Positions 11,017-55,516 are shown, numbered from the stretch's first letter. The stretch is DNA of 64,000 nucleotides from a virus (IMGVR_UViG_3300013126_000015:22818-86817), one strand, 5' to 3'. Numbers and translations are program-made. The notes: a model not told the origin generated them from the letters alone.

Positions 11017-11044
11017 ATTATACCAGATAATTAAAACATGTCAA
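11017..11044 (-). promoter_or_regulatory. sigma70-type promoter (TTGACA 11044-11039, TATAAT 11022-11017)
   Basis: 16-nt spacer. Confidence 0.5.
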
Positions 11045-13535: not shown

Positions 13536-13550
13536 AAAAATATTTATTGA

Positions 13551-14361: not shown

Positions 14362-14567
14362 ATAATTTGTTTTTCTTCACCTTCTAACCATCCCCAGAAT
14401 CCTGGTTCTGATGGTGAATATGATAAGATTTCATCATATGATAAGTTAGTTGATGATTCCATATTATCTAACCAGTATCCAATTCGTCTTTCTATTTGTG
14501 TTATATCATATAGTCCTTTATCCCACCATATGCGTTTAAATTCATTTTCAGATAGGTAATATTTCAT
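14340..14567 (-). CDS. tandem paralog family I small protein
   Basis: MKYYLSENEFKRIW...EGEEKQIIWFLLQL. Confidence 0.55.
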   Translation of the reverse strand: MKYYLSENEFKRIWWDKGLYDITQIERRIGYWLDNMESSTNLSYDEILSYSPSEPGFWGWLEGEEKQIIWFLLQL

Positions 14568-14806
14568 AGTTGTAATAGAAGTATATTAATATATTTTTCA
14601 TCACCGTTGATAATAGCAACATGATCATTACATGAAGTATTGTATGTTTCCATATATGTAATATTTGGATATGTTTCATCCCAAAGTATATATCTACTCA
14701 TTTTACATTTGTATTCACCATCTAGTGGTTCAGTGATCCATTGAGATGGTTCAAATAGACAATACCATATAGTATTCCATTGATTATATGTAATATAATG
14801 AATCAT
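14564..14806 (-). CDS. tandem paralog family I small protein
   Basis: ...NGDEKYINILLLQL. Confidence 0.5.
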   Translation of the reverse strand: MIHYITYNQWNTIWYCLFEPSQWITEPLDGEYKCKMSRYILWDETYPNITYMETYNTSCNDHVAIINGDEKYINILLLQL

Positions 14807-15120
14807 ATATACTGGTGATCTTTACAAAATAATTTAATTGATTTTTCTAATTGTGATTTATCAATTAAATTATAACGTCTTCTTAATGTAGAGAGTGACA
14901 CAGATTTATTATTTTTTGCCCAAGAGCCATATAGTGGTATAGAATGCAAAGTAGTTGACCATGGGTATACATATGTCTCTATTTGATAAGTATATTCACC
15001 GACTATATCTTTTAAAATCAAGTTGATTCTTAGATAAGTTGATGGTTCTGAATAATAATGATTGGTGAATATAAATCCATATTTCAGGATTGACATTGTT
15101 TCGGTATTAGTTAAGTTCAT
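14803..15120 (-). CDS. hypothetical protein (105 aa)
   Basis: ORF in array, overlapping stop/start. Confidence 0.4.
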   Translation of the reverse strand: MNLTNTETMSILKYGFIFTNHYYSEPSTYLRINLILKDIVGEYTYQIETYVYPWSTTLHSIPLYGSWAKNNKSVSLSTLRRRYNLIDKSQLEKSIKLFCKDHQYI

Positions 15121-15180
15121 TGTTATGATATACCACGGTTATGTTAATAGTAGTATATCATAATTTTTGTATTATGTCAA

Positions 15181-16332
15181 CTATTGCCAATTGTATAGAT
15201 CGTCAAGATGTTTTTGCCATGCATGGATGGTGGGGTATTTTTGGAGGAATTGACCCTTTAATGGATTGTGACCCATATTTTTTAATCCAGCCTGATATGA
15301 TGTTTGTACCATTAATTTTTCCAATTCATCCATTGATTGTGTTGTTTTAAGTGCAGTTACCAAATGAGATTGATCATATGTTCTATTGTTGGCATATGTT
15401 TTTAATAATTCTTGTTTAGCTGGAGTATTTTTCATACGTTGAACCCAACCTGCAACTCTATACTCATCTAATGCAGAACCAATTTGTTGATTTTCATTAT
15501 CTGATAATTGAATTAATAGTTTAGATAATTGTTCTAGTGTTTTTGCAGAATTCAGTTGATGCAATGTCTCTTTCATGAATCTACCATGTTGTTGCATATC
15601 TTTTACACTATCTGGGGAATATTTGTTATTATAACGTTTTATATTAGTAATCGCATCTTTTGAGAAGAATACTGCCTGATTTCTTTCTGATGTATGTATG
15701 ATACCGATACCTGGATCATAAGCTCCATCGATGCCAATATATCTAAACAAATGATTCCACACAATATGAGTATTAGTACCTTGATCATTTGAGCGGGAAG
15801 TAGAAAGTTCTTGTGCTACTTTCATTGTCACGTACCATAATCTACCACCGGCATAACTATCGAATTTAGCTTTTCTATCTGATTGATTGATATAATGTTC
15901 AACTATATCAACTGCATCTTTCCATGGCATATTGGCATTTTTGGTAAAGTAGTCAGCGATTTTTTGGTAATATACTACTAAGTCTTGATTAGACAGGGTT
16001 TTAAGATTAATAATATTACCGTTAGCTTGGAATATATTAACAAATGCTTGATCGCCTGCAAATGGTAGATAATCCATTGCAGTATCAGTATTAGTTTGGT
16101 TAATAACGAATGATGCTGGGTAAGCATAGATACCGATTGGGGTATCCCATTCAGATTTAGGATTTATGCCTAATTTATCGACTGAAGTAAATGATACAAA
16201 GCAATTTACTTCATCTAAATTATCTAATGATGGTGCATTATGAAATGCATTAATAATAATATCATTAATGGATGTCTTAGGATTTTGTTTAGGATTTTTT
16301 CTTTTTTCAGTAATAAATTCATTTGCTCTCAT
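15181..16332 (-). CDS. putative packaged internal protein with T4-type capsid targeting sequence (MRANEFITE)
   Basis: N-terminus matches T4 IP CTS pattern xEF(I/L)xE; shared with 20245 and 20877 genes. Confidence 0.45.
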   Translation of the reverse strand: MRANEFITEKRKNPKQNPKTSINDIIINAFHNAPSLDNLDEVNCFVSFTSVDKLGINPKSEWDTPIGIYAYPASFVINQTNTDTAMDYLPFAGDQAFVNIFQANGNIINLKTLSNQDLVVYYQKIADYFTKNANMPWKDAVDIVEHYINQSDRKAKFDSYAGGRLWYVTMKVAQELSTSRSNDQGTNTHIVWNHLFRYIGIDGAYDPGIGIIHTSERNQAVFFSKDAITNIKRYNNKYSPDSVKDMQQHGRFMKETLHQLNSAKTLEQLSKLLIQLSDNENQQIGSALDEYRVAGWVQRMKNTPAKQELLKTYANNRTYDQSHLVTALKTTQSMDELEKLMVQTSYQAGLKNMGHNPLKGQFLQKYPTIHAWQKHLDDLYNWQ

Positions 16333-16381
16333 AGTAAGTATTTATCACTATAGATGCAATATAAACCAGTTAATTGATATC

Positions 16382-16669
16382 TCATATATTTAAAAGGAAC
16401 CAGTTAATTGATTTTTTAGATCCTGTTAGTATACCCCAGTATCCATCAAAATCATTATCATTATCTATAATAAGACCATAATGGTCTACCTGTGCTGGTA
16501 ACTCATTATAAGATAATTTATATTTATGTTTAAAATTATTCTTCCATATGGATTTTCTAACAAGAATAGCTTCGTAACAATTGGAGTTTGCATCAGATGT
16601 AACCTCGTTAACCCAATCAGTCCATATGGTCCAATATTGGTTTTCAGTTAGATAGTGTTTATATCTCAT
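16382..16669 (-). CDS. tandem paralog family I small protein
   Basis: ...GYWGILTGSKKSINWFLLNI. Confidence 0.5.
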   Translation of the reverse strand: MRYKHYLTENQYWTIWTDWVNEVTSDANSNCYEAILVRKSIWKNNFKHKYKLSYNELPAQVDHYGLIIDNDNDFDGYWGILTGSKKSINWFLLNI

Positions 16670-16905
16670 AATTGTAAAATAAAGAAGTTGATGTGTTTTT
16701 CATTGCCAAATATAATCCCATACCATCCATATGGTGTATCATCGTCGTCACTTATGTCGTTATTTTCGTAGTATCGTAATTTATACTTAGATTTAACATA
16801 CTGATTCCATTTAGATAATCTAATTGGGTAATATTCAACTGTGGGGGAAACATTATATTCCCCCCACAATCTACTATATTGTTCACCGGATAATTCGTAT
16901 CTCAT
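16666..16905 (-). CDS. tandem paralog family I small protein
   Basis: ...GIIFGNEKHINFFILQL. Confidence 0.5.
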   Translation of the reverse strand: MRYELSGEQYSRLWGEYNVSPTVEYYPIRLSKWNQYVKSKYKLRYYENNDISDDDDTPYGWYGIIFGNEKHINFFILQL

Positions 16906-17165
16906 AATTTAAGAAGCAGCATTATTATTCTATTTTTAGTACCATATAGAGAACCATAGTAAATATCTGATGATTCATCTTCTGAAGTATTATATCTTAT
17001 TTTATATTTTTGTTTAATAAATGGAATCCAATTAAATGGGTCTGTATGAGATAACCTATTGGATTTTTGGTGATCGTTGTATTCTGGATCATTACAAATT
17101 AAAGCATGTAGCGATTCAAATTGGGTGTCATTTAGTATAATGTTCATAGTTGTAATAATATCCAA
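16902..17165 (-). CDS. tandem paralog family I small protein
   Basis: ...GSLYGTKNRIIMLLLKL. Confidence 0.45.
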   Translation of the reverse strand: MDIITTMNIILNDTQFESLHALICNDPEYNDHQKSNRLSHTDPFNWIPFIKQKYKIRYNTSEDESSDIYYGSLYGTKNRIIMLLLKL

Positions 17166-17407
17166 TTAATATTACGTTCATCGCCTTCTAATACTCCCCA
17201 ATATCCTTCTGGTAAATCAATATCGTAGATATGGAGTTCTTCATAATATTTTACATTGGTGGCTGGGTATCTTTCCGTAAAAATACGGGCACGTTTATCA
17301 GCCGCAATAATAGATGATAGCCCAAAAAAATCAGACATATAGTTATCCCACAACTTATAAAATTGTTCGCTAGAAAGATAATATCTCATAGTTGTAATAA
17401 TAACCAA
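17144..17407 (-). CDS. tandem paralog family I small protein
   Basis: MRYYLSSEQFYKLW...GYWGVLEGDERNINWILLQL. Confidence 0.55.
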   Translation of the reverse strand: MVIITTMRYYLSSEQFYKLWDNYMSDFFGLSSIIAADKRARIFTERYPATNVKYYEELHIYDIDLPEGYWGVLEGDERNINWILLQL

Positions 17408-17601
17408 TTAATGTTTTTTTCACTGCCAGTTAACATCCCCCAGAATCCTGGTTCTGATAATCGCTCAGAATAGAGAACGTTATTTTTACTTAACCATTCT
17501 TTAACCTCCAGATCAGTAGGTTCATGATACCACAAATCATTATACTGTTCTTCTGATAGAAAATATGTTATATCATCATTCATATTTGTAATAATAACCA
17601 A
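17386..17601 (-). CDS. tandem paralog family I small protein
   Basis: ...GFWGMLTGSEKNINWLLLQL. Confidence 0.55.
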   Translation of the reverse strand: MVIITNMNDDITYFLSEEQYNDLWYHEPTDLEVKEWLSKNNVLYSERLSEPGFWGMLTGSEKNINWLLLQL

Positions 17602-17840
17602 TTGATATATTTTTCATCCCCTGATAATACTCCATAATATCCCTCTCCATAATATCCCTCTTCATATTCGTCACTATTTTCATAATAAATTATATTCAAA
17701 TGTGCATAACGAGTAGTCCACAATGATTTTCTATTTTCATATTCGATAGACATATCATACTGTGGATCTGCCCATTGTTCATCATTTATAACGGTGTACC
17801 ACAGGTTTGTCCATTGATTTGATGATAGATAGTATTTCAT
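17580..17840 (-). CDS. tandem paralog family I small protein
   Basis: MKYYLSSNQWTNLW...SGDEKYINWLLLQI. Confidence 0.55.
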   Translation of the reverse strand: MKYYLSSNQWTNLWYTVINDEQWADPQYDMSIEYENRKSLWTTRYAHLNIIYYENSDEYEEGYYGEGYYGVLSGDEKYINWLLLQI

Positions 17841-17848: not shown

Positions 17849-18127
17849 TTATCTACTCAATAAAAACATTATATAATGATGACCATCTTGTTTAATAAAT
17901 TGCTTAAATTTTTCAACATCAGCTTCATTATACAAAATTAAAGTCATCTCAAATCTATCTAGAATCTGCGCAAATGTGCCTGTAGTATGATATTTTGATT
18001 TATGTTGTAATGTTGCATTAAAGATGTCTTTACAAAACTTGGTCAATGGTATGTTAGTATCATAATAATCACGGCATTTCACCAATGTTTCATATTTGTC
18101 TTTATTAATTTTAATTTTGATGCTCAT
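17849..18127 (-). CDS. small protein with family II-like C-terminus (...HHYIMFLLSR)
   Basis: C-terminal motif. Confidence 0.45.
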   Translation of the reverse strand: MSIKIKINKDKYETLVKCRDYYDTNIPLTKFCKDIFNATLQHKSKYHTTGTFAQILDRFEMTLILYNEADVEKFKQFIKQDGHHYIMFLLSR

Positions 18128-18396
18128 GAGTATCTTAGTACAAACATGTTATAATCAGACAATGATTCAAATGTTATGATATCTTCATCAACTGTTTCTG
18201 GATTTGTGGCGCGATTTGCGCGAAATGTAATCATAAGGAATTTTTGTAATTCTTCTTCAATATATTGCACACTATCGTCATCATCTGAAAGATCGTCAAG
18301 ATATTGATTATAGTTATGTTGTAAATATAAGTCAAACTTATCTATAATGTCATCTACCGACGATGGTGGCAATTGTGTAAAATAAATGGTATACAT
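18124..18396 (-). CDS. small protein with family II-like C-terminus (...DYNMFVLRYS)
   Basis: C-terminal motif. Confidence 0.45.
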   Translation of the reverse strand: MYTIYFTQLPPSSVDDIIDKFDLYLQHNYNQYLDDLSDDDDSVQYIEEELQKFLMITFRANRATNPETVDEDIITFESLSDYNMFVLRYS

Positions 18397-34139: not shown

Positions 34140-34168
34140 ATTATATTATCAAATTAACCTAATGTCAA
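34140..34168 (-). promoter_or_regulatory. consensus sigma70 promoter for natV (TTGACA 34168-34163, 17 nt, TATAAT 34145-34140)
   Basis: read directly. Confidence 0.6.
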
Positions 34169-34410
34169 GAATATTTTAATACAAACGCATTAAAATATTT
34201 TTCAGAATCAAATGTAATTCCAGTTTCGTTGTTGTATGTCCATAATACTGCATGGCAATTGTATAGGTAAAACATTGAGTTTATAAAATTTATACGAATA
34301 GATTCTGGCATATCATAATAAAATTCGTATTCATCCCTAAATTGGTTAAAAAAGTTATTATACCCAATGTCATAATGTGATTTTAAAATATGTGTATATT
34401 TCATGCCCAT
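34165..34410 (-). CDS. tandem paralog family II small protein (...YFNAFVLKYS)
   Basis: C-terminal motif. Confidence 0.5.
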   Translation of the reverse strand: MGMKYTHILKSHYDIGYNNFFNQFRDEYEFYYDMPESIRINFINSMFYLYNCHAVLWTYNNETGITFDSEKYFNAFVLKYS

Positions 34411-34727
34411 TTCAACAAGAATAATGTTCTATCTTTTTCATATTTAAAATAAAAATAATTATTTATTACAGTATATCTATCACTACAGTGCTTCCGTAAA
34501 TAATCATGAAAATTAAATATTGCATGAACATCAAACTCATGGGCATCCACTATAAACTGATCATGTGCTTCATGACATGTGAATTTAGGTTTTTTAAATG
34601 CAGCATCTCCTGCTAGGACCCAATTAGTGCCATCAAACTTCATCATAGTATTCGTTTGGGTGTTATAATAAACTGTACCAACCGCTGGAGCAGCCGTTGT
34701 GTAAGTAAATGCTATATTATGAACCAT
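34401..34727 (-). CDS. family II small protein (...DRTLFLLKWA)
   Basis: C-terminal motif. Confidence 0.5.
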   Translation of the reverse strand: MVHNIAFTYTTAAPAVGTVYYNTQTNTMMKFDGTNWVLAGDAAFKKPKFTCHEAHDQFIVDAHEFDVHAIFNFHDYLRKHCSDRYTVINNYFYFKYEKDRTLFLLKWA

Positions 34728-34986
34728 ATTTTAATAAAAACATTGTAAATTTTGCTTCATCATGGACTATTATATCATCTAGTATCGCTCCATCAATATA
34801 TACCATTTCGATCTTATACTCTTTTTTCATAGTATTCACCATCTGGGTTTCCGTAATAGGATAATCGCCGCTATTCCACCAATTATTTATTGCTGTTTTT
34901 GCTCTATTAATTCTTTCCCGTTTATCAGTTAGAGATTGTGCATACTTTCTAGTATGTTCGGCTACAGTGGTAATATTTTGTTTCAT
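34717..34986 (-). CDS. family II small protein (...KFTMFLLKYGS)
   Basis: C-terminal motif. Confidence 0.5.
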   Translation of the reverse strand: MKQNITTVAEHTRKYAQSLTDKRERINRAKTAINNWWNSGDYPITETQMVNTMKKEYKIEMVYIDGAILDDIIVHDEAKFTMFLLKYGS

Positions 34987-35216
34987 GATAAATACATTAT
35001 GTCTAGAATAAATCCACCGGCAGGTTATGCAAATTGGAATACATACATTGAAGCAATGGCTGATGCTAGTTCTGATCAGAGCATCACTAATCGTCGTAAG
35101 ATAAAACGTGATATTAAATTAGGAATGATCGCTGCAATTGAACGTTCCACCAATAGAATTAATCATACCTATAATAGTCCAGGAACAGTTGCACCAGCTC
35201 CACATCATCCGTGGGA

Positions 35217-35738
35217 TTAAGCCCACCAACTATCATGGTCATGATTGGAATCATATATAATTAATTCTGGTCTGTATTCACCATTATATTGTTTTACATC
35301 TTCTGCAACAATTGCCAATAATGTTGAAATCGCTCCTGTATAATATCTACGATTAATGAAACTTTTATCACTAACTTTTGGATTAAAACTCCATACCCAG
35401 TAGTTATCAGGGGACAATTTGAAAGGATAACTTGTTTCTGCATGGATTTCTAAATAATTTCCAGATGGGATTATCGCTGGAAAGTTTGATTCTTGTTCAA
35501 TTTTGACACGTATAATTTCATAATCCTTTAATGGTAAAAACATTACCTGAGAAAGAATCATTTCAATAAATGATAAATGATTATCGATCATAAAATGTTT
35601 TGTTAACATTTTATCAGTTTGCCATCTACCATTATTGTACAACTTTATTGTAGTTTGCTTCCATCCTTTTGGTGTTATTTCAGGAAAGTTTGTTACTGTC
35701 ACATGAACATGTAAATGTGTTTTATTTGTTGATTTCAT
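35217..35738 (-). CDS. hypothetical protein (173 aa)
   Basis: ORF. Confidence 0.45.
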   Translation of the reverse strand: MKSTNKTHLHVHVTVTNFPEITPKGWKQTTIKLYNNGRWQTDKMLTKHFMIDNHLSFIEMILSQVMFLPLKDYEIIRVKIEQESNFPAIIPSGNYLEIHAETSYPFKLSPDNYWVWSFNPKVSDKSFINRRYYTGAISTLLAIVAEDVKQYNGEYRPELIIYDSNHDHDSWWA

Positions 35739-35750
35739 AAAGATACCAGA

Positions 35751-35990
35751 TTATGTATGTAGTATAAAGTACATCATATCACGTTCTGACTTGAATGTCA
35801 ACTCATAAACCGGGGAGTATTTAGCTTTTTCACATGAGCAATTGAAATGTGATATGAATTCTTCATGTATACCACCAGTTGGCTTATCATATTTTGTTCT
35901 TATAAATTTAGCGGAATTTATTAATGCTGTTCCATTTATTTTAACATAAACTGATAATCCATCATACTTCAAATTTTCTACCATGTTCAT
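35751..35990 (-). CDS. family II-like small protein (...RDMMYFILHT)
   Basis: C-terminal motif. Confidence 0.45.
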   Translation of the reverse strand: MNMVENLKYDGLSVYVKINGTALINSAKFIRTKYDKPTGGIHEEFISHFNCSCEKAKYSPVYELTFKSERDMMYFILHT

Positions 35991-36444
35991 CGATATATTT
36001 TTTTGCAGATATTAATGAGTCTGGAACATACCCAGGATTATATGATATTCTAGTATCATTTTGTTTAAAAAATCTATAAACCAATAACTCATCAACTGCT
36101 GAAAACCAGTGAATGACATTTGGTTCGAGTTTTATTAGTTCCAATTCTTTACAATCGACAATATATAAGAAATCATCACTGTATATGTAAAAAGTGGCAG
36201 TACCTTTCATAATAAATCGCAATTCTTCCCCATCATGGTAATGGATATCTGAATCTACTACTCCAGAGCGATTAAAAAATGTGTCGAATTTTGTATAACC
36301 ATACTTGATAACATCCAAATCTGATTTATCAACTTTCTCATATGGAGTTATGGAAAAAACACCATATAAATCGAATTGTTCACTAGTGCGTAAAACTTGA
36401 TCTATTTTTAATTCAATTGGGTTTATTTTATAAATGATAGCCAT
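35962..36444 (-). CDS. hypothetical protein (160 aa)
   Basis: ORF. Confidence 0.45.
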   Translation of the reverse strand: MAIIYKINPIELKIDQVLRTSEQFDLYGVFSITPYEKVDKSDLDVIKYGYTKFDTFFNRSGVVDSDIHYHDGEELRFIMKGTATFYIYSDDFLYIVDCKELELIKLEPNVIHWFSAVDELLVYRFFKQNDTRISYNPGYVPDSLISAKKYIDEHGRKFEV

Positions 36445-36472
36445 TATTATTCTCCGAATGTACTATTTACTA

Positions 36473-36718
36473 TTATAACCATTTTAATATGAATAATGTT
36501 CTATCAGCTTCATTACGAAAAGAAAATATATCATTGTTTGGCCAACTTCTTGAATACCGTCGCCATCTTTCATCATTATTACCAAAACTAAATTCACACC
36601 ATATTGTCATTTCTTTTAATGCATATTCATTATAGCCGAGATCATGTTTTTCAATAATCTCGGTCATTGATTGCCAATCCAATTCAACAGTGTATTCAGT
36701 ATATACTTTCATGACCAT
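36473..36718 (-). CDS. family II small protein (...ADRTLFILKWL)
   Basis: C-terminal motif. Confidence 0.5.
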   Translation of the reverse strand: MVMKVYTEYTVELDWQSMTEIIEKHDLGYNEYALKEMTIWCEFSFGNNDERWRRYSRSWPNNDIFSFRNEADRTLFILKWL

Positions 36719-36951
36719 TTTATAAAAAATAAGGTTTTGTATTTTTCATTATCAAATATTAATTTAAAATAAGTAATTTCATCAGTAATATATATTGCTT
36801 TATATGGTCTTAACTCAATATCAAGATAATATCTATATGAATTATATTCTTTAAGTTTATCTGGATATGTTTCATACAAATGTGAAATAAAATTATCCCA
36901 TACCGGTATTCTGTTACCATTTCGTCCAACATCAACTGTTACATAAGTCAT
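36709..36951 (-). CDS. family II small protein (...KYKTLFFIKWS)
   Basis: C-terminal motif. Confidence 0.5.
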   Translation of the reverse strand: MTYVTVDVGRNGNRIPVWDNFISHLYETYPDKLKEYNSYRYYLDIELRPYKAIYITDEITYFKLIFDNEKYKTLFFIKWS

Positions 36952-37157
36952 AAGAATTTTAATAAAAATATGGTGTAATGTTTTTCAGAATCAAACGTGA
37001 CAGTGTTATCTCTTCGATTGTATGTAGCATTACACAGTTTTATGAATTCTTCGAACACATTAATACTTTTTCCACTGTTTAAATCAACCAAATTTATAAT
37101 CTTAATTCTAGCATTTTCTGGAATGTCAGCCCAATAAATGGTGTAACTCATCCCCAT
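36948..37157 (-). CDS. family II small protein (...KHYTIFLLKFL)
   Basis: C-terminal motif. Confidence 0.5.
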   Translation of the reverse strand: MGMSYTIYWADIPENARIKIINLVDLNSGKSINVFEEFIKLCNATYNRRDNTVTFDSEKHYTIFLLKFL

Positions 37158-37387
37158 TTCAATACAAATAAATTATAACATGCTTCTGACTGAAATGCAA
37201 TAGCATCCCATTGTCCTTGATCATCTAAAATCATCCACATATTATGCTCTTTCATTTTTCCAAGTAGAAGGTTATCGAAATTAACACTAGCAGAAGGACT
37301 AGCTAAATCGTGGGCATTAAATATAAATCTTTTCCACCATGATGGTATTTCCTCAAAAGACTTATGAGCGAGTTCAACAATATACAT
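37148..37387 (-). CDS. family II small protein (...ACYNLFVLKWG)
   Basis: C-terminal motif. Confidence 0.5.
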   Translation of the reverse strand: MYIVELAHKSFEEIPSWWKRFIFNAHDLASPSASVNFDNLLLGKMKEHNMWMILDDQGQWDAIAFQSEACYNLFVLKWG

Positions 37388-37961
37388 ATTTTAATTGGTC
37401 CAACCGGTGTATCGTTTTCCAAACATCAGTATGATGAACTCCTATACCACCTGCTTCAACCCATTCTCTAATGTTTTCTGAATGATCATCAATTAAAATA
37501 TCATCAGGACTATAAACATATTTGTGTTTTAAGTGTCTACCTAATGTACAATGGACTGGATAATTTGAACCCAATTTGTCTCTAACCCATCTTTCTTTAT
37601 CGATGGCAGAGGATAACAAATATCCAGTTGGGTCTGGGATCGCTGTTAAAAAGAAGATATCATGCGTTTCTTCAAAATGTTTTATTTCATCAAGTAAATA
37701 ATTAACATTTGGTAATACTTCAAACTGATAAAAAATATTTGGTATCTCTTTTGTCAAATGTTTCCAAACATAATCACCACCTAATTCTCGATATGGTTGC
37801 CCAAAATGCTCGATTATGAATTTCTCACAATTTGCCACAACCCCATCACAATCAATCGCCAATCGTGGTCTAATATTATTTTCCATATTGTAATAAAAAT
37901 AGTAGTTTGTCAGATTCTTTTTCAAAAAGAATGCGTTTGAGACCATAGAATACTCTGACAT
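37374..37961 (-). CDS. HAD-family 5'(3')-deoxyribonucleotidase (LAIDCDGVVAN); start uncertain
   Basis: DxDGV HAD motif I. Confidence 0.5.
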   Translation of the reverse strand: MSEYSMVSNAFFLKKNLTNYYFYYNMENNIRPRLAIDCDGVVANCEKFIIEHFGQPYRELGGDYVWKHLTKEIPNIFYQFEVLPNVNYLLDEIKHFEETHDIFFLTAIPDPTGYLLSSAIDKERWVRDKLGSNYPVHCTLGRHLKHKYVYSPDDILIDDHSENIREWVEAGGIGVHHTDVWKTIHRLDQLKYVYC

Positions 37962-38169
37962 ATCCTTTGTGATCTTTCATTGCATACCTCATTAATAATT
38001 TTGTATCATAATCCTCTGATAATTCAAGAGAATACAATTCTGGAAATCTTTCTAGAATCATATTATAGAATGTATCAATAGTTATAAAAGATGCTTCATG
38101 ACTTTCAAATAATGCAGCTTCTATGTTTTTAACAGTGTTATGGTAATCTACCATCGTAAAATAAACCAA
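37876..38169 (-). CDS. family II small protein (...DKLLFLLQYGK)
   Basis: C-terminal motif. Confidence 0.45.
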   Translation of the reverse strand: MVYFTMVDYHNTVKNIEAALFESHEASFITIDTFYNMILERFPELYSLELSEDYDTKLLMRYAMKDHKGYVRVFYGLKRILFEKESDKLLFLLQYGK

Positions 38170-38495
38170 TTATAATCATTGTCATCTCTAAATAAAAACG
38201 TTGAATTTATTTTTTTCCATTCATTTTTTGCATAGTTACTACACCATTCTATACCTTCATCAATTTGGTCTCGTCGCAATGTATGACATTTCCAACCAGA
38301 TTGAACATAAAGTGATACAATTATTTCATTGTCTATTTCTTCCTGCATAGACTTTATAATTTCTTGTTCAATTGAATCATTCAATTCTGGTTCCAAATTT
38401 TTCCAAGTAGTAGACAACATTGTCTGATTCGTAGCGTGGATAGGTTGGTGAACCGGTGTCTTTGAACAATGGGTCTCGTTTGTTGATTCGTCCAT
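38148..38495 (-). CDS. family II small protein (...DYNWFILRW); true start probably internal ATG (38420 or 38348)
   Basis: overlaps next ORF; C-terminal motif. Confidence 0.4.
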   Translation of the reverse strand: MDESTNETHCSKTPVHQPIHATNQTMLSTTWKNLEPELNDSIEQEIIKSMQEEIDNEIIVSLYVQSGWKCHTLRRDQIDEGIEWCSNYAKNEWKKINSTFLFRDDNDYNWFILRW

Positions 38496-38673
38496 GTAGT
38501 AAATACCCTGATTTGAAAGTATGATGATAATTTCTTGCTAATTCTGGATCTTTATAAGTATATTCACCTGATCCATATGATAACCATTTTTTTAATGATT
38601 TTTCACTGGTGAATTTTTTAATGATGGTGTTTTTGCATCGCATGTCAGTGCTTTGTGAGATTCCGTAATACAT
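38377..38673 (-). CDS. hypothetical protein (98 aa) with GGAGA SD
   Basis: ATG 38673, SD 7 nt upstream. Confidence 0.45.
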   Translation of the reverse strand: MYYGISQSTDMRCKNTIIKKFTSEKSLKKWLSYGSGEYTYKDPELARNYHHTFKSGYLLHGRINKRDPLFKDTGSPTYPRYESDNVVYYLEKFGTRIE

Positions 38674-38960
38674 AGTTTGTTCTCCGGCAATGTTTGTATT
38701 TTATATAATAGTTCAACAACTTCTTCTGTAGTTAAATACCCGATAACATCATCTGTTATCGGGGTAGAATAATCTATCTCATAATTGAATTCATCATTCC
38801 AACGTAATACTGCAACTTCATATAATCCTACTGGACCACCATATGTATATTGTCCCTTTATTACGGATGCACCGTACTCATTTTGAAATTTAAATACTAC
38901 CCTGGTTCCTAGACTATCTGTGTGCACTGAATGTCTATATTTTTTTAATATAGTAATCAT
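38592..38960 (-). CDS. hypothetical protein (122 aa); 82-nt out-of-frame overlap with 38377..38673
   Basis: ATGA overlap with upstream gene at 38957-38960. Confidence 0.4.
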   Translation of the reverse strand: MITILKKYRHSVHTDSLGTRVVFKFQNEYGASVIKGQYTYGGPVGLYEVAVLRWNDEFNYEIDYSTPITDDVIGYLTTEEVVELLYKIQTLPENKLCITESHKALTCDAKTPSLKNSPVKNH

Positions 38961-39700
38961 TTTAAGTCCATGAATGCCAATAATCCCAATGCTTTTATTT
39001 CTTCATTGGTTAATTTTGCCATAGCAGATTCAATCAGATTCTTTGAATCACTAGGCAATTCTTTTATCATTTTTTTAGCATTGCTTTTAGTGATAGTTTT
39101 TATATTTACTACAGGAATAGGATTAGGCGTTTTATCATTCATGTAAATATAACAATAATAAACCTTCTTACCATATTTAACTGATTCTTCTATATCCATA
39201 ATACGTTCAAATGGATTCTGTTTATAGAATGATAACGCTTTATTTTTTGACCTGAAACTAACACGATAACCAAAATCAGTGCGTTCGAAACAATCAAACG
39301 GTTCCACCTTTATGTCATTCTTTATCATTGCATCTTTCAGATTGAATAATCCTATATCATATAATTCATCTGTCGTATCAGATACAGAAAAAGTTACCGG
39401 TTGATAAGGTTTATTACTCTCTGTAATAAACAGTGCATATGTTACGTCATCATTATTAAAAGTCAATCCATTATAATATCTAGTCTTCCATGACCAAGAT
39501 GTACCAAACTCCCCTTGCAACTTATATTTTTTTAATATAGATTCTATCTTATCAACATTTTCACGTAAAATGGTTCTATCAGAATCAAAATAAATTCTAA
39601 TCCAAGATGCGTCTTTATAATAATCTATTTTCCAACCATTACGTTGATTCCAGTTATAAGTATTGGTCAATTCAATTGCAAAGTCAGTTACATTAGTCAC
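38957..39700 (-). CDS. hypothetical protein (247 aa)
   Basis: ORF. Confidence 0.5.
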   Translation of the reverse strand: MTNVTDFAIELTNTYNWNQRNGWKIDYYKDASWIRIYFDSDRTILRENVDKIESILKKYKLQGEFGTSWSWKTRYYNGLTFNNDDVTYALFITESNKPYQPVTFSVSDTTDELYDIGLFNLKDAMIKNDIKVEPFDCFERTDFGYRVSFRSKNKALSFYKQNPFERIMDIEESVKYGKKVYYCYIYMNDKTPNPIPVVNIKTITKSNAKKMIKELPSDSKNLIESAMAKLTNEEIKALGLLAFMDLK

Positions 39701-39920
39701 GTGTTATCGTTTCCAAGAAGTTTACATCATCAGTTGCGAATCGTACTGCTTTATGTGGTATAGGTGACCCATATGCAGTAGTTGGATCATCGGTCATTTT
39801 AACAAGCACGGTTCGTTCTGTTAATTCAACAATAGTTACTGCACAAACCTCATCGCGCCCAGGAAGTAATGCATAATATGTAGATCCGACAGTTTTTAAA
39901 ATATTATCTCGTCTGGCCAT
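39693..39920 (-). CDS. hypothetical protein (75 aa)
   Basis: ORF. Confidence 0.4.
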   Translation of the reverse strand: MARRDNILKTVGSTYYALLPGRDEVCAVTIVELTERTVLVKMTDDPTTAYGSPIPHKAVRFATDDVNFLETITRD

Positions 39921-40092
39921 CGTCTTCTACCCATTTAATTGATACATCAAATGTTCCTTTTTGAAATCCATGTCGATCTTGGGGAATTTTGTCGATCAGA
40001 TTGTTGTATCGTGAATCAATCGCTTCTGCAACATCCCGGTATATATCCACGATTGATTCGCCATCATATGTTTTATCAAATAAGGTTAACAT
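39904..40092 (-). CDS. hypothetical protein (62 aa)
   Basis: ORF. Confidence 0.35.
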   Translation of the reverse strand: MLTLFDKTYDGESIVDIYRDVAEAIDSRYNNLIDKIPQDRHGFQKGTFDVSIKWVEDDGQTR

Positions 40093-40409
40093 ACATCATC
40101 CTCGTTATCATTCATATCAAAGTCAACTTCACCGTCTTCTGGATCATAGTAGTCTAATGGATTATATCCAGAAATGGTACCATCACCAAAAACTTCGATA
40201 CATTTTGCAATGAAGTATTGATCTTCGGATTTGATTGTTAAATCACTGTCTTCTAATACACCGTATATTTCAGAATGTTTTCCTAAAATTTCACCAAAGT
40301 AAATCTTTTTCCCGATTACTTTTGCAACGTTTTCTTTGTCAGCGATGAAAACACCGTATACATCGCCCATTCTTTTACAGTCCCAGTGGAACTCATATAT
40401 TGCTTTCAT
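40086..40409 (-). CDS. hypothetical acidic protein (107 aa)
   Basis: ORF. Confidence 0.45.
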   Translation of the reverse strand: MKAIYEFHWDCKRMGDVYGVFIADKENVAKVIGKKIYFGEILGKHSEIYGVLEDSDLTIKSEDQYFIAKCIEVFGDGTISGYNPLDYYDPEDGEVDFDMNDNEDDVC

Positions 40410-40600
40410 GGCCAGTCCTCGTAATGCTCTCGTATGATTTTCATAAGATTTTTTAAATCTTTCCTATATTGATGTATGATTGGATATGGTGAGGTCAAGC
40501 AATGTAAATTATGAGAATTACTAAATTCTTTTACACGCTGTTGTTCGGCATCTAACAAATCGTACAACTGTTTTGCTTCTTCTACATTAAATGATTTCAT
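40406..40600 (-). CDS. hypothetical protein (64 aa)
   Basis: ORF. Confidence 0.4.
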   Translation of the reverse strand: MKSFNVEEAKQLYDLLDAEQQRVKEFSNSHNLHCLTSPYPIIHQYRKDLKNLMKIIREHYEDWP

Positions 40601-40662
40601 CTTTAGTCACTCTCTTTAATTTAAATTCGTTACTTATAACATACCATAATAATATCATATTG

Positions 40663-40929
40663 TCAATCTTTATTTGCAAACCATTCATCTACTGTAAAAA
40701 TATCAGGTGCTAGAAATTTTTTTCCAGAAAAGAAATCACTAGCTTCCCATTGATTACCACCTAGCTCAAAAAATGCAAAATTAGGCCATTTATTTTCGAT
40801 CAAGGCTTTTTTTGCAGCACTTTCGAAATCTACTAAAAAAGCTTCAGGAGATTCATAAACCACCGGATATGATTCTGTATAACTATAAGTACAATCATCT
40901 GTGCAATGAATATTAACTATAAGTCTCAA
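40663..40929 (-). CDS. hypothetical protein (88 aa)
   Basis: ORF. Confidence 0.45.
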   Translation of the reverse strand: MRLIVNIHCTDDCTYSYTESYPVVYESPEAFLVDFESAAKKALIENKWPNFAFFELGGNQWEASDFFSGKKFLAPDIFTVDEWFANKD

Positions 40930-40930
40930 A

Positions 40931-41140
40931 TTATCCCCATCTTAATAAAAATAAATTCGCATGAGCATCGTCTTTAAAATAAAATTCATCGAGTATATTA
41001 TGATTGGAGTCATATGACCAAATTGAGTAATCATCACCAAACGTCCGTTTACACCATTGCCATATCTTTTTTCTATCATTGGTAGGATACACTGAAATAT
41101 CAATCCTAATTACGTATGGTAATCTATAATCTACGTTCAT
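40931..41140 (-). CDS. family II small protein (...HANLFLLRWG)
   Basis: C-terminal motif. Confidence 0.5.
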   Translation of the reverse strand: MNVDYRLPYVIRIDISVYPTNDRKKIWQWCKRTFGDDYSIWSYDSNHNILDEFYFKDDAHANLFLLRWG

Positions 41141-41146
41141 CGCGTG

Positions 41147-41425
41147 TTACCAACGAATGTTCTTCCAGTTCAATTTATTACTTGGAGTATTAAATGCCAT
41201 TATTGCTTTAGACACCCATTCTACTCTAAATATTGCGGCAAATATTACCAATGGTAAAAATAATAACATTGACCACCAAACTCTATTTTCTCCATACCAT
41301 GGTTTTTCAAACACAAAATATGGGTGTATCGCCAAAATACAATCTAATACTACCAAAGCAGTTATAATATATTCATTCATACTATTTTCCTTTCTAATCA
41401 ACGTTTCCACTTTAATAGAAACCAA
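41147..41425 (-). CDS. small membrane protein (92 aa, 2 TM)
   Basis: hydrophobic segments. Confidence 0.45.
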   Translation of the reverse strand: MVSIKVETLIRKENSMNEYIITALVVLDCILAIHPYFVFEKPWYGENRVWWSMLLFLPLVIFAAIFRVEWVSKAIMAFNTPSNKLNWKNIRW

Positions 41426-41592
41426 TTATAATCTTTTTCATCGGTGAACTCGAACCATGAATGTCCAAATAATGAACTAAATCCCCACTTTTCATTTATA
41501 GGACCATAGGTATCTGTACACCACTTTATTATATCATGTTGAACATGATAATAATCTCTATTTAACATGATTTCTAACTTCATGTCGCCCAT
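41398..41592 (-). CDS. family II small protein (...DYNWFLLKWKR)
   Basis: C-terminal motif. Confidence 0.5.
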   Translation of the reverse strand: MGDMKLEIMLNRDYYHVQHDIIKWCTDTYGPINEKWGFSSLFGHSWFEFTDEKDYNWFLLKWKR

Positions 41593-41837
41593 TTTAATAA
41601 AAATAAATTCAACATTTTTTCATTATCACTCCAAACATATATTCCTGGGCACATGACATGTGGAATAGGCACATATGTTATTGGGTGTATTACTGGGTGT
41701 ATTGGGTGGTACCAAATGGTGGAGTCATTGGTTTGGCCACTACACCATTCTTCCATATCCTGTATATCCTGTGGTGTCGCAGTTGGTAATGAATAATGCA
41801 TTCGGTCCATCCCATGAATCATCCATTTGAATAGCAT
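41580..41837 (-). CDS. family II small protein (...MLNLFLLKWAT)
   Basis: C-terminal motif. Confidence 0.5.
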   Translation of the reverse strand: MLFKWMIHGMDRMHYSLPTATPQDIQDMEEWCSGQTNDSTIWYHPIHPVIHPITYVPIPHVMCPGIYVWSDNEKMLNLFLLKWAT

Positions 41838-53236: not shown

Positions 53237-53480
53237 ATTTTAGATGCCACCAATTCGCATATTTTTCATTTTCAAAGAATGGGTGTAATTCCATTGTCCA
53301 TGTTTGAGTATTAACTTTCCAATCTAATCTATAATTACCAGGATATATTTTTTGAAAATCTTCAGTGATTTTCATTATTTTAAGTTCTGTACTTTCTGCA
53401 GAACTGAATATTCTGTTGATTTCATAACAATGACGTAATGTATTAAGATATTGTTTCCATGGACTCATTATATCCCCCAT
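53229..53480 (-). CDS. family II-like small protein (...ANWWHLKYD)
   Basis: C-terminal motif. Confidence 0.4.
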   Translation of the reverse strand: MGDIMSPWKQYLNTLRHCYEINRIFSSAESTELKIMKITEDFQKIYPGNYRLDWKVNTQTWTMELHPFFENEKYANWWHLKYD

Positions 53481-53651
53481 TTTAATATGAACATTGTATA
53501 ATATCGTTCGTCATAGAATTGTATTTTTGCTAATTGTCGTAATCGCCACGTTGAGTCAGTTGATGGACCAAAAGTTTTATTACAATAAGCCAGCATTTCA
53601 AAACATTTGTGTCGATCTTTTCTATATTCAAGTTCTATTATCATTATTTAA

Positions 53652-54068
53652 TTATGGTATTATGTTGTGTGATAATATAAACCAATTATAATCTTTTTCA
53701 TTGACAAATGCGAACACCATAAAATCTATGCCTGTTAATGCATTTATTTCATCATATACGTCAACCACAGAAGAACCAGTATCACCCCATGAACGAAATG
53801 ACCGATGCCAATCAGTTCTCCATCTATTTTTACAATGTAGTTTACACCAATCACCTAATTGATCCACTGATAGATTATAATTTTTTGACATGTACACAAT
53901 TGCAATATATGGATAACCATGATAAAATTCCTTAATGGTATTAGACCTACGATTTATAAGTGGATCAACTGTTCTGTTATAATCATTGATTGTATTATAA
54001 CAGAATTTTTTTAATATTCGAAAAACTTTCCATTTATCAATTAATTTTTTTACGTATGATATTACCAT
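53652..54068 (-). CDS. family II-like protein (...DYNWFILSHNIIP)
   Basis: C-terminal motif. Confidence 0.45.
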   Translation of the reverse strand: MVISYVKKLIDKWKVFRILKKFCYNTINDYNRTVDPLINRRSNTIKEFYHGYPYIAIVYMSKNYNLSVDQLGDWCKLHCKNRWRTDWHRSFRSWGDTGSSVVDVYDEINALTGIDFMVFAFVNEKDYNWFILSHNIIP

Positions 54069-54552: not shown

Positions 54553-54554
54553 TA

Positions 54555-54791
54555 TTAAAATCTATTTGGATGGTGTTTTAACAGTTTGGTTTCAATCTTA
54601 TGCCATTTTCCAACAACATATGAATGTGACCCAAGGTAGTGCAATTTTGCAAAAATTCTATCGATTATGTTTGGGATATTACGTCGAACATTAAAGTTAT
54701 AATCATAGTTAGCAGTCCCGCGTAATCTGTCGCGGATTTTATATTTTAACGGATATACTACCGGTGCAAATTGTTTCATGGTCAACACCAT
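54555..54791 (-). CDS. hypothetical protein (78 aa)
   Basis: ORF. Confidence 0.4.
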   Translation of the reverse strand: MVLTMKQFAPVVYPLKYKIRDRLRGTANYDYNFNVRRNIPNIIDRIFAKLHYLGSHSYVVGKWHKIETKLLKHHPNRF

Positions 54792-54970
54792 CTTAAAATA
54801 AAGTAAGTGTAATCTCGCTGGTTATCAAATTGTATCACATCTTTTAGAATTTTGCAATGGAATTCTTTTTCGAATTCTTTAGTAGATGGTTCGGTGCCAT
54901 GTGTATTTTCATACCATTCATAGGCACTGAACACTTCATTACTTCTGAATAGTAACTCATGTTTTTTCAT
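54782..54970 (-). CDS. family II small protein (...DYTYFILRWC)
   Basis: C-terminal motif. Confidence 0.45.
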   Translation of the reverse strand: MKKHELLFRSNEVFSAYEWYENTHGTEPSTKEFEKEFHCKILKDVIQFDNQRDYTYFILRWC

Positions 54971-55266
54971 TATTCACCAAATTTTAACACAAATAATGTT
55001 CTATCCTGTTCTTTTTTAAAGTAAAAACGAAAATATCCATCCTCATCAATGCCATGATAGAATCTATCTTTAAATGATTCTTCGCACCATAAGATTGATT
55101 CTACCAATTGATCATGTGAGTCATGCATACTTGTAAAATTTGATCTTACGTAATAAATGAATGCTGTTTCGTGAGTGTTATCTAGTTGGCCAACTGATTT
55201 CACTATTACCGGAGTCCAGTCATATCTATTTCTCATTGAAAAAATCGATGCTGATGGGATTGACAT
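54970..55266 (-). CDS. family II small protein (...DRTLFVLKFGE); track ORF trimmed to internal ATG 55266
   Basis: AT-rich low-complexity N-terminal extension in track ORF is implausible. Confidence 0.4.
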   Translation of the reverse strand: MSIPSASIFSMRNRYDWTPVIVKSVGQLDNTHETAFIYYVRSNFTSMHDSHDQLVESILWCEESFKDRFYHGIDEDGYFRFYFKKEQDRTLFVLKFGE

Positions 55267-55330
55267 AGGTTGTACACCCACGATGTCATTGGCAATTGAT
55301 TGTGGTATTATCTTTCTTAATAATGGTATA

Positions 55331-55516
55331 TTAATCTCTGTCACGGTGCTCATGATGGTGATGTCGGTTATGATGCTGATTATGATGGTATTGGTATTGT
55401 GGATAATACCTTGGGTAATATACAGGTTGAACTGGGTAATAATAGCTGTCGTATCCACGGTAATTGTGGGCACATCCAACTAAAAATAATAACGATAATA
55501 CTAATAATTTATTCAT
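55331..55516 (-). CDS. His/Tyr/Pro-rich lipoprotein (61 aa; lipobox LVGC)
   Basis: MNKLLVLSLLFLVGCA then YYYPVQPVYYPRYYP...HHNRHHHHEH. Confidence 0.5.
   Translation of the reverse strand: MNKLLVLSLLFLVGCAHNYRGYDSYYYPVQPVYYPRYYPQYQYHHNQHHNRHHHHEHRDRD

Follow-up and report, generated by a model that had tools for sequence, protein, structure and literature searches.

An undescribed family of small phage proteins in tandem arrays, recognisable by a conserved FLLKW-type C-terminus

Why should a run of small viral genes end in nearly the same few residues? The question is raised by positions 34165-41837 of a 64,000-nt stretch of viral DNA (the window), which an earlier note had described as a tandem array of about 20 small genes with a "...FLLKW"-type ending (family II). 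The shared ending is real. The strict tail pattern F[FLIVM][LIVF][KR][WFY] occurred 18 times in the six-frame translation of the window, with 16 occurrences no more than four residues from a stop and 15 of these 16 on the minus strand. Pattern plus stop gave 19 matches, compared to a mean of 3.2 and a maximum of 9 in 200 order-2 Markov simulations. The tail was present in 15 of 138 called genes versus 0.04 expected (maximum 2) upon residue shuffling. All ORFs quoted in the note were found on the minus strand where it had placed them.

To assign membership, 300 window ORFs were scored with an HMM derived from 505 family sequences. Together with the tail statistics, this confirmed that the genes form a true paralogous family identifiable from the C-terminus, with ~17 tandem copies in the window. 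The count for 34165-41837 was lower than proposed: the HMM supports ~12-13 of the ~24 minus-strand genes there (starts 34165, 34401, 34717, 36473, 36709, 36948, 37148, 37876, 38148, 40931, 41398 and 41580). Matches were moderate for 34717 and 37876, weak for 35751 and clear for the other listed starts. Further copies had been placed at 53229-55266; four members were supported (53468, 53652, 54782 and 54970), while the match of 53229-53480 was not significant. Of three members assigned to the first array, 18124-18396 was clear and 18403-18618 moderate, and 17849-18127 was unsupported by the HMM. The members are as follows, with family HMM E-values.

18124..18396, minus strand: member in first array, 90 aa, ...YNMFVLRYS (E 5.6e-8); also recovered by profile search as match P0002
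18403..18618, minus strand: moderate member, degenerate tail ...YNMFLLTLE (E 1.9e-5, C-terminal module only)
34165..34410, minus strand: member, 81 aa, ...FNAFVLKYS (E 1.4e-6)
34401..34727, minus strand: member, 108 aa, ...DRTLFLLKWA (E 3.8e-11); its K-W codons contain the first ATG of the next gene
34717..34986, minus strand: moderate member, 89 aa, ...FTMFLLKYGS (E 1.6e-4)
35751..35990, minus strand: weak, doubtful member, ...RDMMYFILHT (E 3.2e-3, tail module only)
36473..36718, minus strand: full-domain member, 81 aa, WC..SFG...W...FSFRNEADRTLFILKWL (E 9.1e-16); orthologue in L012, 51% identity, tail kept
36709..36951, minus strand: member, 80 aa, ...YKTLFFIKWS (E 2e-7)
36948..37157, minus strand: member, 69 aa, ...HYTIFLLKFL (E 2.2e-8)
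37148..37387, minus strand: member, 79 aa, ...CYNLFVLKWG (E 3.2e-7)
37876..38169, minus strand: moderate member, ...DKLLFLLQYGK (E 4.1e-4); the ATG in its Y-G codons is probably the true start (MENN...) of the downstream nucleotidase-like gene
38148..38495, minus strand: member with N-terminal extension, 115 aa, ...DYNWFILRW-stop (E 9.5e-12)
40931..41140, minus strand: reference (modelled) member, 69 aa (E 5.2e-19); orthologue in L010/L011, 49% identity
41398..41592, minus strand: member, 64 aa, ...DYNWFLLKWKR (E 1.8e-19); orthologue in L011, 52% identity
41580..41837, minus strand: member with long beta2-beta3 insertion, 85 aa, ...MLNLFLLKWAT (E 2.7e-11)
53468..53644, minus strand: member, 58 aa, ...YYTMFILKWGI (E 3.3e-17)
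53652..54068, minus strand: member, tail six residues from the end, K/R-W pair absent, ...DYNWFILSHNIIP (E 1.3e-8)
54782..54970, minus strand: member, 62 aa, ...DYTYFILRWC (E 6.8e-10)
54970..55353, minus strand: fusion of a gp23 N-terminal fragment (LLRKIIPQSIANDIVGVQPMS...) to the family domain, ...DRTLFVLKFGE (E 4.2e-13)

The AlphaFold2 model of the reference member had a pLDDT of 85.9, rising to 91-93 over the tail, with predicted strands at residues 9-14, 41-46 and 50-55 and helices at 20-34 and 58-68. The last ~55-60 residues of members are thereby predicted to form one compact beta1-alpha1-beta2-beta3-alpha2 domain in a small, soluble protein, with the tail ...F.F..E.D..F.L(K/R)W as its strand beta3 and helix alpha2. 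This domain is always the C-terminal end of the protein. The earlier picture of one tail on otherwise divergent bodies needs correction, since most members also share an upstream second motif, I..WC..TFG...W. The modelled position of the tail as last strand and helix of the domain also argues against a free tag on unrelated bodies. The C-terminal 17 residues were found in ~100% of the 505 sequences, at up to 5.5 bits per position, and the upstream module was alignable in only ~72%. Window paralogues were 19-31% identical in protein sequence and alike at the DNA level only over 38-57 nt at the gene ends (65-76% identity), indicating old, diverged copies and not recent duplications. Conservation of the C-terminal module far exceeds that of the other core elements, and a helical-wheel reading shows the helix to be hydrophobic on nearly all sides.

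A motif always found at the extreme C-terminus, with a small residue after the W, could be a degron or sorting tag read by a host protease, chaperone, secretion or packaging machine. T4-type phages provide precedents for a conserved terminal tag on variable bodies, one being the capsid targeting sequence carried by their internal proteins. The ssrA tag and similar degrons are disordered with an LAA-like end, and tags of this type offer ClpXP, ClpAP or Tsp an accessible C-terminal peptide with a small non-polar end. In contrast, the tail is helical and packed in the model, which argues against a tag that needs an accessible, disordered peptide. Conservation also spans ~17 residues, reaching into a beta-strand and paired with the upstream motif, and members have no signal peptides or transmembrane segments. 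Recognition by a host protease or chaperone, as suggested earlier, is on these grounds very unlikely. An ssrA-like degradation tag does not fit, as the tail is predicted helical (residues 58-68, pLDDT ~91-93) and ends in W-(S/G/A).

The same data bear on a second explanation, in which beta3-alpha2 is a shared docking or oligomerisation module for one hub (a host or phage protein, or the family members themselves) and the variable N-terminal part is cargo or confers specificity. The near-universal presence of the tail module relative to the upstream WC..FG module is in its favour, as is the fixed distance of the motif to the C-terminus. The N-terminal half differs across whole subfamilies (many L019 members, family I), and on the helical wheel W, F, L, L and W lie around most of the circumference of the consensus helix. 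However, the module is predicted to be integral to a well-packed domain (pLDDT >90) and not an appended peptide. We regard a common docking module as possible, though doubtful. A shared functional interface would explain module conservation and helical wheel equally well or better than a purely structural role would.

The reach of the family was assessed by a profile search, as the earlier note had proposed. Among 1.84 billion cluster representatives, 687 clusters matched at E<=1e-3, with the tail motif C-terminal. Among the 150 matches listed, nearly all were 45-165 aa long and ended ...F.F..E.D.TWF.LRW(S/G/A)-stop; in 135 external proteins the motif ended one residue before the stop in 98 cases and two residues before it in 23. 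Loss of the tail from orthologues in related phages would have pointed to a local sequence duplication, but these orthologues keep it, as do hundreds of clusters elsewhere. No Pfam-A family matched the domain at E<=1 (10 window, 10 external, 50 set-A2 and 10 longer members). Significant Pfam matches were limited to Gp23, located on N-terminal extensions, and YmdB, in a single protein that is suspected to be chimeric. Comparison to PHROG gave no consistent family, only single weak matches (E>=0.015), and the family profile matched no PDB sequence. Structure searches gave no family-specific PDB fold match; their results were limited to alpha/beta sandwiches of a generic kind and to uncultured-phage proteins that are themselves uncharacterised. 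Family II is a previously undescribed phage protein family, and a large one in viral sequence.

Members might alternatively be small RNA- or DNA-binding regulators with a split beta-alpha-beta fold and aromatics on beta1 and beta3, each paralogue controlling translation or transcription of a specific gene. The F.F..E.DA pattern, which we take to resemble RNP1 plus helix 2 of an RRM, is a lead in this direction and not a test of it. Against it, the last 60 residues have a median pI of 5.7, exceeding 8 in only 21%, so that members are mostly acidic to neutral; strand beta4 is absent, and RRM, ACT and KH gave no Pfam match even at E<=1. Nucleic-acid binding therefore seems unlikely. Two specific folds were rejected as candidates. 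An RRM has the order beta1-alpha1-beta2-beta3-alpha2-beta4, its strands beta1 and beta3 bearing RNP2 and RNP1, and its sheet surface is usually basic or aromatic; members show neither beta4 nor an RRM profile match. No ACT/ferredoxin-like small-ligand domain (beta-alpha-beta-beta-alpha-beta plus profile match) was found.

The fusion at 54970-55353 matched Pfam Gp23 (PF07068) over residues 3-75, with an E-value of 3.4e-13 and 50.2 bits (cutoff 24.4), covering profile positions 3-61 of 376. Full Gp23 has an HK97-type capsid fold of ~400-500 aa; at only 127 aa, this product is thus not a capsid protein but a piece of the gene joined to the family domain. Residues 11-49 align with T4 gp23 residues 98-136 at 46% identity. 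In all, 13 of ~200 family proteins carry a gp23 fragment, above the Pfam threshold in several, and in L008 and L018 such a fusion is the first gene of an array. The segment around T4 gp23 residues 98-136, which contains IxGVQPM, has homologues at the N-terminus of 54970-55353 and in 12 or more external members, a minority of the family. It would overlap the Gol region of gp23 if that region spans residues 93-122, as we take it to do. Through Gol, gp23 binds EF-Tu and activates the Lit protease of e14, and the Gol region is described as the most conserved region of gp23 (PMC3014915). Recurrent fusion to this segment suggests a cargo-plus-module logic of the kind a docking module would have. It could also indicate that the family acts in head assembly, or is packaged and injected. 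However, >90% of members have no gp23 fragment, and the genes around the arrays serve replication and metabolism and are not head genes. Members share a strand with the replication, NAD-salvage and nucleotide-metabolism genes. The T4-type late-promoter motif TATAAATA was absent from the arrays and depleted window-wide (6 found, 18 expected). A capsid-related role is highly improbable.

A further array in the window ends differently.

13099..17840, minus strand: family I array, 11 genes, ...GYWG.L.GDEK.IN.LLLQL (E 2e-4 to 0.04)

Alignment of families I and II by hhalign covered only the last 15-17 residues (probability 12-36%). AlphaFold2 predicted a similar beta-alpha-alpha-beta-beta-alpha topology for family I (pLDDT 81), and the BFVD neighbour lists of the two families hardly overlapped. 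Family I is possibly a distant relative of family II, with nothing in common beyond the C-terminal strand-plus-helix module.

Many unrelated viral contigs also contain tandem arrays of the family on one strand. On a 338-kb contig, 17-24 copies adjoin rIIB (L004). In one relative of this phage, L019 comprises 76 consecutive copies in 18.7 kb, and with L035 and L023 on the same 94-kb contig the total is at least 102. That contig encodes an AAA ATPase 61% identical to the window's and, like the window, the NAD-salvage pair NatV/NadV. A limited full-text literature search returned no phage case of family amplification at such scale, and we know of no phage tandem paralogue family of this size. Copy number and gene order shift quickly between related phages. 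Gene order is rearranged between the window and its relatives, and orthologous members are 49-52% identical compared to 65-70% for flanking non-family genes. Relatives with 45-60% identity in their core genes offer most window members no more than paralogue-level matches (30-40%). Among L019 paralogue pairs, dN/dS was ~0.49 for the body and ~0.29 for the tail; it was <1 in 96% of pairs, with no signature of gene-wide positive selection.

The arrays are joined by overlapping stop and start codons, most window members ending NNA TGA. In relatives, the tail codons TTG AGG TGG TCA TGA have a second use in starting translation of the next gene. They supply its ribosome-binding site, with GAGGTGG lying 5 nt before its ATG, and the ATG itself, which overlaps the TGA stop. 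The tail Arg is AGG in 52 of 57 L019 tails, whereas in the bodies of these genes AGG makes up only 29 of 199 Arg codons. This bias was also seen in L021, L027 and L009, and the Leu codon TTG is likewise enriched in relatives' tails. Part of the extra tail conservation in relatives, including its lower dS, thus arises from dual coding, which weakens the case for a docking module. Together with the overlaps and the confinement of DNA repeats in the window array to gene ends, the codon bias could mean that conservation is mainly at the DNA or RNA level, through a recombination or regulatory cassette (PeSL-like) or translational coupling, with the protein motif a by-product. Window tails, however, keep the protein motif with varied codons (K AAA; R AGA/CGA; L TTA/TTG/CTA) and no Shine-Dalgarno-like sequence. 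DNA identity at the gene ends is also modest, the motif is retained in array-ending or stand-alone members (L001), and the confident predicted fold explains the pattern. There is very little likelihood that the motif is such a by-product.

The account we favour, with roughly even confidence, is of a one-scaffold family with variable halves, acting as non-late, host-binding accessory proteins in arrays shaped by unequal recombination. The conserved W-C, F-G, W, F.F and W-F.L.W positions would, judging by the model, form the hydrophobic core of the common scaffold. Binding specificity may differ from paralogue to paralogue through the loops, the extensions and the variable half at the N-terminus. 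These non-late accessory proteins would bind host proteins stoichiometrically, in host takeover or counter-defence, and unequal recombination between conserved 3' ends could let the arrays grow and shrink. The strand shared with replication and metabolism genes and the missing late-promoter motif fit this account. Speaking against it are a promoter scan that gave no enrichment over shuffled sequence, the lack of a gene-wide positive-selection signature and the conservation pattern of the C-terminal module. Most likely, the family would serve as a fast-turnover set of early host-interaction proteins on one scaffold.

Among known folds, the ferredoxin-like, ACT and RRM split beta-alpha-beta sandwiches are the nearest generic ones, and family II differs in having no beta4. 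The T4 internal-protein locus is similar in combining a conserved terminal element with variable small proteins at a variable T4-type locus. The capsid targeting sequence is a short, cleaved peptide at the N-terminus of those proteins, whereas the family II element is C-terminal, spans ~17 residues and is predicted to belong to the fold. Multigene families or 'genomic accordions' include ASFV MGF360/505/110, poxvirus host-range amplification and the ankyrin expansions of giant viruses. They too comprise tens to ~100 tandem paralogues on a small scaffold, with varying copy number and suspected host interaction, but occur in eukaryotic viruses and have experimental host-range evidence. In the hyperplastic regions of T4-type phages, small and variable ORFs, most of them early, stand in blocks and are shuffled via PeSL cassettes (PMC4122927, PMC2839356). 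Family II arrays resemble them as long same-strand runs of small, function-unassigned genes between conserved modules, with genes that are quickly gained, lost and reordered from one related phage to another, and in one contig adjoin rIIA/rIIB. In contrast to those regions, most small genes here belong to one paralogous family, up to 76 in succession; they overlap (ATGA) without intergenic promoter-stem-loop cassettes, and it is within their coding 3' ends that the DNA is repeated.

At about 32% G+C the window is AT-rich, and it looks like a portion of a large phage genome; beyond about 8 kb, nearly every gene is encoded on the minus strand. The ORFs quoted in the earlier note were present where it had placed them. 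Translation in all six frames gives 18 occurrences of the strict tail pattern F[FLIVM][LIVF][KR][WFY]; 16 of the 18 lie no more than 4 residues from a stop, 15 of these 16 on the minus strand. Tail pattern plus stop was counted 19 times, against a mean of 3.2 and a maximum of 9 in 200 order-2 Markov simulations. The tail closes 15 of the 138 called genes, compared with 0.04 expected from residue shuffling.

Family members were called with an HMM built from 505 family sequences, run on 300 window ORFs of at least 40 aa, giving roughly 17 copies in the window. The array at 34165–41837, previously put at about 20 genes, was recounted as about 24 minus-strand genes, with about 12 members and one weak candidate (35751). 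Further copies reported at 53229–55266 correspond to four members within 53468–55353, the ORF at 53229–53480 being without HMM support. Two of the three members assigned to the first array (18124–18396 and 18403–18618) were retained; the third, 17849–18127, lacked HMM support. The interspersed array genes agree with the earlier description and comprise a weak NT5C-like nucleotidase, an ARD/cupin-like protein, a small membrane protein and acidic proteins. Members share their strand with replication, NAD-salvage and nucleotide genes.

Genes within and around the arrays (window coordinates)
9196–12566, minus strand: Eco57I-like DNA methylase domain protein adjoining a ResIII/DEAD helicase
29822–31282 and 33055–34089, minus strand: NAD-salvage pair, a NadV-like nicotinamide phosphoribosyltransferase and a NatV-like NMN adenylyltransferase/Nudix protein
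31377–32618: SPFH/Band-7 protein, between the NAD-salvage genes
35962–36444, minus strand: ARD/cupin-like protein (Pfam ARD, E 5e-9), inside the array
42741–43805, minus strand: AAA ATPase with weak nSTAND3 similarity, just upstream of the array
55509–56459, minus strand: response-regulator receiver and GGDEF diguanylate cyclase fusion (Pfam E 1e-43 and 4e-24)

The receiver–GGDEF gene lies directly upstream (5′) of the second member cluster in the direction of transcription. The best GenBank phage match to the NAD-salvage pair was 46% identical (Phaeobacter phage MD18). The T4 late-promoter core TATAAATA was absent from the arrays and is strongly depleted in the whole window (6 versus 18 ± 4 expected). 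A scan for sigma-70-type promoters and terminators did not exceed shuffled expectation, and Rfam and tRNA scans of the 64 kb window returned no matches and no genes, respectively.

The tail had been described as shared by otherwise divergent sequences. Alignment and HMM searches instead revealed a second motif, I..WC..TFG...W, conserved 25–35 residues upstream; the tail is not a tag appended to unrelated bodies. AlphaFold2 modelling of the 69-aa member at 40931–41140 (minus strand), using an alignment of 15 window paralogues, gave a pLDDT of 85.9, with 91–93 over the tail. The predicted order is β1(9–14)-α1(20–34)-β2(41–46)-β3(50–55)-α2(58–68). In this model α1 closes with WC..TFG, β3 carries the F.F pattern, and α2 is capped by E.D and ends in F.L(K/R)W. 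Members are mildly acidic and rich in aromatics. About 100% of the 505 non-redundant sequences have the last 17 positions, at up to 5.5 bits per position, compared with about 72% in which the upstream module can be aligned. This far stronger conservation of the tail module, and a helix that is hydrophobic almost all round, favour the main rival to the scaffold explanation developed below, namely that β3-α2 is a shared docking or oligomerisation element; on balance we consider this rather unlikely.

Window paralogues share 19–31% protein identity, and DNA repeats within the array are confined to gene ends (38–57 nt, 65–76% identity), which indicates that the copies are old. The earlier note held that absence of the tail from orthologues would point to a local sequence duplication. 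Orthologues on short contigs of closer relatives all retain it (40931–41140, 49% identity; 41398–41592, 52%; 36473–36718, 51%). Flanking non-family genes on these contigs are 65–70% identical, and member order differs from that in the window. The tail is thus retained, members diverge more quickly than the genes next to them, and the arrays have been rearranged. Among paralogue pairs (50–92% identity) of locus L019, an external viral array, dN/dS was about 0.49 for the body and about 0.29 for the tail. Synonymous divergence was also lower in the tail (0.63 versus 0.98).

A full HMMER profile search returned 687 clusters at E ≤ 1e-3 among 1.84 billion cluster representatives. The 150 proteins listed from this search span 43–163 aa, aside from two long repetitive proteins that were treated as spurious. 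The consensus of the listed matches is ..WC..TFG....W.....FyFk.E.DrTwFlLRW(S/G/A)-stop. The distance from the end of the motif to the stop is one residue in 98 of 135 external proteins and two residues in 23. One external protein of 141 aa, P0017, carries two domain copies in tandem within one ORF (...FWFRNEQDRTFFILKWL...FWFRDEQDRNLFILKWL), which suggests that read-through fusions of neighbouring array genes occur. Neither Pfam nor PHROG models matched over the domain in any member tested, and PDB sequences gave no match to the family profile. Every top BFVD match was an 'Uncharacterized protein [uncultured Caudovirales phage]', and source annotations of external members supplied no useful names. 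The JGI name 'RuBisCO small subunit' for P0177 was set aside as spurious, being supported by no test run; a terminase large-subunit fragment suspected in P0062 and P0075 was dropped, with no support from Pfam or tblastn.

Against 50,697 GenBank phage records, no match was obtained by megablast with the array, or by tblastn with either one external member or a 1,219-aa concatenate of 15 members. Since tblastn has low sensitivity for 55-aa domains, absence of the family from cultured phages stays unproven. A word-indexed protein search with the window alignment matched only the window's own 102,445-bp JGI contig, and a one-pattern scan of IMG/VR identified 23 loci. No match was confirmed in the genomes of 185,579 species; this absence from cellular genomes is provisional because RNWF[IL]LRW was the only pattern scanned. 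So far, the family is known from metagenomes alone.

Tandem arrays recur in other viral contigs and can far exceed the window's in size. Copy numbers were obtained by scanning fetched loci with the family HMM.

Family copies in external viral loci
L004 (ENA, 338-kb contig): 17–24 copies, immediately downstream of rIIA/rIIB-like genes
L007: 7 copies; heme oxygenase, bilin reductase and HSP20 also present
L008: 14 copies
L009: 11 copies
L018: 21 copies
L019 (IMGVR_UViG_3300044613_002694, contig range 2251–22445): 76 consecutive same-strand members in 18.7 kb
L021 and L030: 18 copies each
L025: 17 copies

The heme oxygenase, bilin reductase and HSP20 of L007 suggest a cyanophage origin, and L018 has, beside its array, a methylase similar to that of the window. 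Three loci that do not overlap, L019, L035 and L023, belong to a single 94-kb IMG/VR contig and have 102 members between them. This contig comes from a relative of the window phage and encodes the NAD-salvage genes NatV and NadV; in both genomes the array lies between the ATPase and NatV. The AAA ATPase is a conserved array neighbour, since a protein 61% identical to that of the window occupies the same position in L023. The closest matches to the window NatV (44%) and NadV (58%) came from near-duplicate loci located on other contigs. With roughly 17 copies, the window therefore represents a moderate case in a clade that amplifies the family.

Window members mostly end in NNA TGA, with the stop overlapping the following ATG. 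In L019 the terminal codons are near-invariant (TTG AGG TGG TCA TGA), placing GAGGTGG 5 nt ahead of the ATG that overlaps the stop. The rare arginine codon AGG is used in 52 of 57 L019 tails compared with 29 of 199 positions elsewhere in the same genes (about 90% versus about 15% of arginine codons). L021 shows the same skew (13/14 tails versus 4/40 elsewhere), as do L027 and L009, and the tail leucine codon TTG is likewise enriched. Gene ends that spell a Shine-Dalgarno sequence are also found in L009, L021, L027, L028, L030 and L037. The codon bias and the placement of GAGGTGG indicate that tail codons in these relatives double as the ribosome-binding site of the next gene. At TTGAGGTGGTCATGA-type junctions they may drive its translation. 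Window tails read AAA TGG and contain no Shine-Dalgarno-like sequence. The suspicion that the window phage dispenses with Shine-Dalgarno sequences was rejected, as the core precedes 21% of its genes versus 3.6% of random positions. Selection therefore acts on the protein motif itself, with the RNA signal as a secondary layer, and the tail cannot be explained at the DNA level alone. The nucleotidase-like ORF at 37374–37961 (minus strand), as listed, overlaps the preceding member at 37876–38169 by 86 nt. Translation probably begins at the ATG within that member's tail codons (..CAA TAT GGA AAA TAA, giving MENN...), which would add one more stop-start-coupled junction.

The member at 54970–55353 (minus strand, 127 aa) joins an N-terminal fragment of a T4-type major capsid protein to the family domain. 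The segment scores above threshold with Pfam Gp23 (50.2 bits), is 46% identical to T4 gp23 residues 98–136 (the IxGVQPM segment) and was found by tblastn in capsid or vertex genes of 1,941 T4-type phages. A gp23 fragment occurs in 13 of about 200 family proteins, and at least 12 external clusters, as well as L008 and L018, contain the same fusion; in the L008 array it is followed by a family member. The Gol region is presumably residues 93–122 of gp23. In a T4 review, Gol, a gp23 peptide to which EF-Tu binds and which switches on the Lit protease, is described as the most conserved portion of gp23 (PMC3014915). The fusion hints that some members may have a role connected with the capsid, EF-Tu or defence.

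A separate minus-strand array at 13099–17840, plus 18615–18842, holds 11–12 paralogues (family I) ending in ...GYWG.L.GDEK.IN.LLLQL, all with stop-start overlaps of the type (L/I)-TGA. Profile–profile comparison with the present family aligned only the last 15–17 residues (probability 12–36%), and the HMM of the present family scored family I members at E 2e-4 to 0.04. AlphaFold2 predicts a similar β-α-α-β-β-α order for family I (pLDDT 81), and the structural neighbour lists of the two families barely overlap. A common origin is plausible.

The analysis showed the family with its predicted fold, the placement of the domain at the C-terminus, the arrays, their turnover and the coupling signals. 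The best joint explanation, to which we give about an even chance, combines a common scaffold, variable specificity, non-late host-binding proteins and recombining arrays. Conserved aromatic and aliphatic positions would build the scaffold, and variable N-terminal halves, loops and extensions would confer specificity. Members would act as non-late accessory proteins that bind host proteins, and unequal recombination at the conserved 3′ ends would expand and contract the arrays. Circumstantial support comes from the strand shared with replication genes, the rII-adjacent array, the lack of a late-promoter motif and the acidic, aromatic-rich members. Degron, nucleic-acid-binding, DNA-cassette and capsid-structural readings rank below both the scaffold and the docking readings. 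A bolder extension, which we regard as improbable, is that an uncultured large-phage clade carries hyper-expanded, rapidly reshuffled small effectors on one scaffold, about 17 to >100 genes that take up as much as about a quarter of a 94-kb contig, with β3-α2 docking to a common hub. Some members would then present conserved 'self' peptides, such as the Gol-like major capsid protein segment, as decoys or modulators of host factors or capsid-recognising defence sensors (Lit/EF-Tu-like or CapRel-like). If so, the arrays would be the phage equivalent of the multigene families with which large eukaryotic DNA viruses evade immunity.

Small genes without known function, arranged in blocks, account for the biggest share of what is unexplained in large phage genomes. 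Much of the window's small-gene block reduces to one domain family with a clear signature and a confident predicted fold. At minimum, a new domain-database entry is justified; the profile annotates roughly a dozen or more unannotated window genes and many more in the viral contigs examined. Because copy number, order and surfaces vary while the 17-residue module is almost invariant, the family is a tractable handle on host adaptation by large phages. It also provides a clean natural case of dual coding, in which the last four codons of one gene form the ribosome-binding site and start of the next. Limited full-text searches for motif strings and phage tandem small-gene families returned nothing relevant, and in these limited searches no phage precedent was found for 76 members in a row or at least 102 per contig. 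Tandem small-gene blocks are well known as the hyperplastic regions of T4-type phages (PMC4122927, PMC2839356). The present arrays differ from these in that one uncatalogued domain family makes up much of the block, and in that its C-terminal module is almost invariant.
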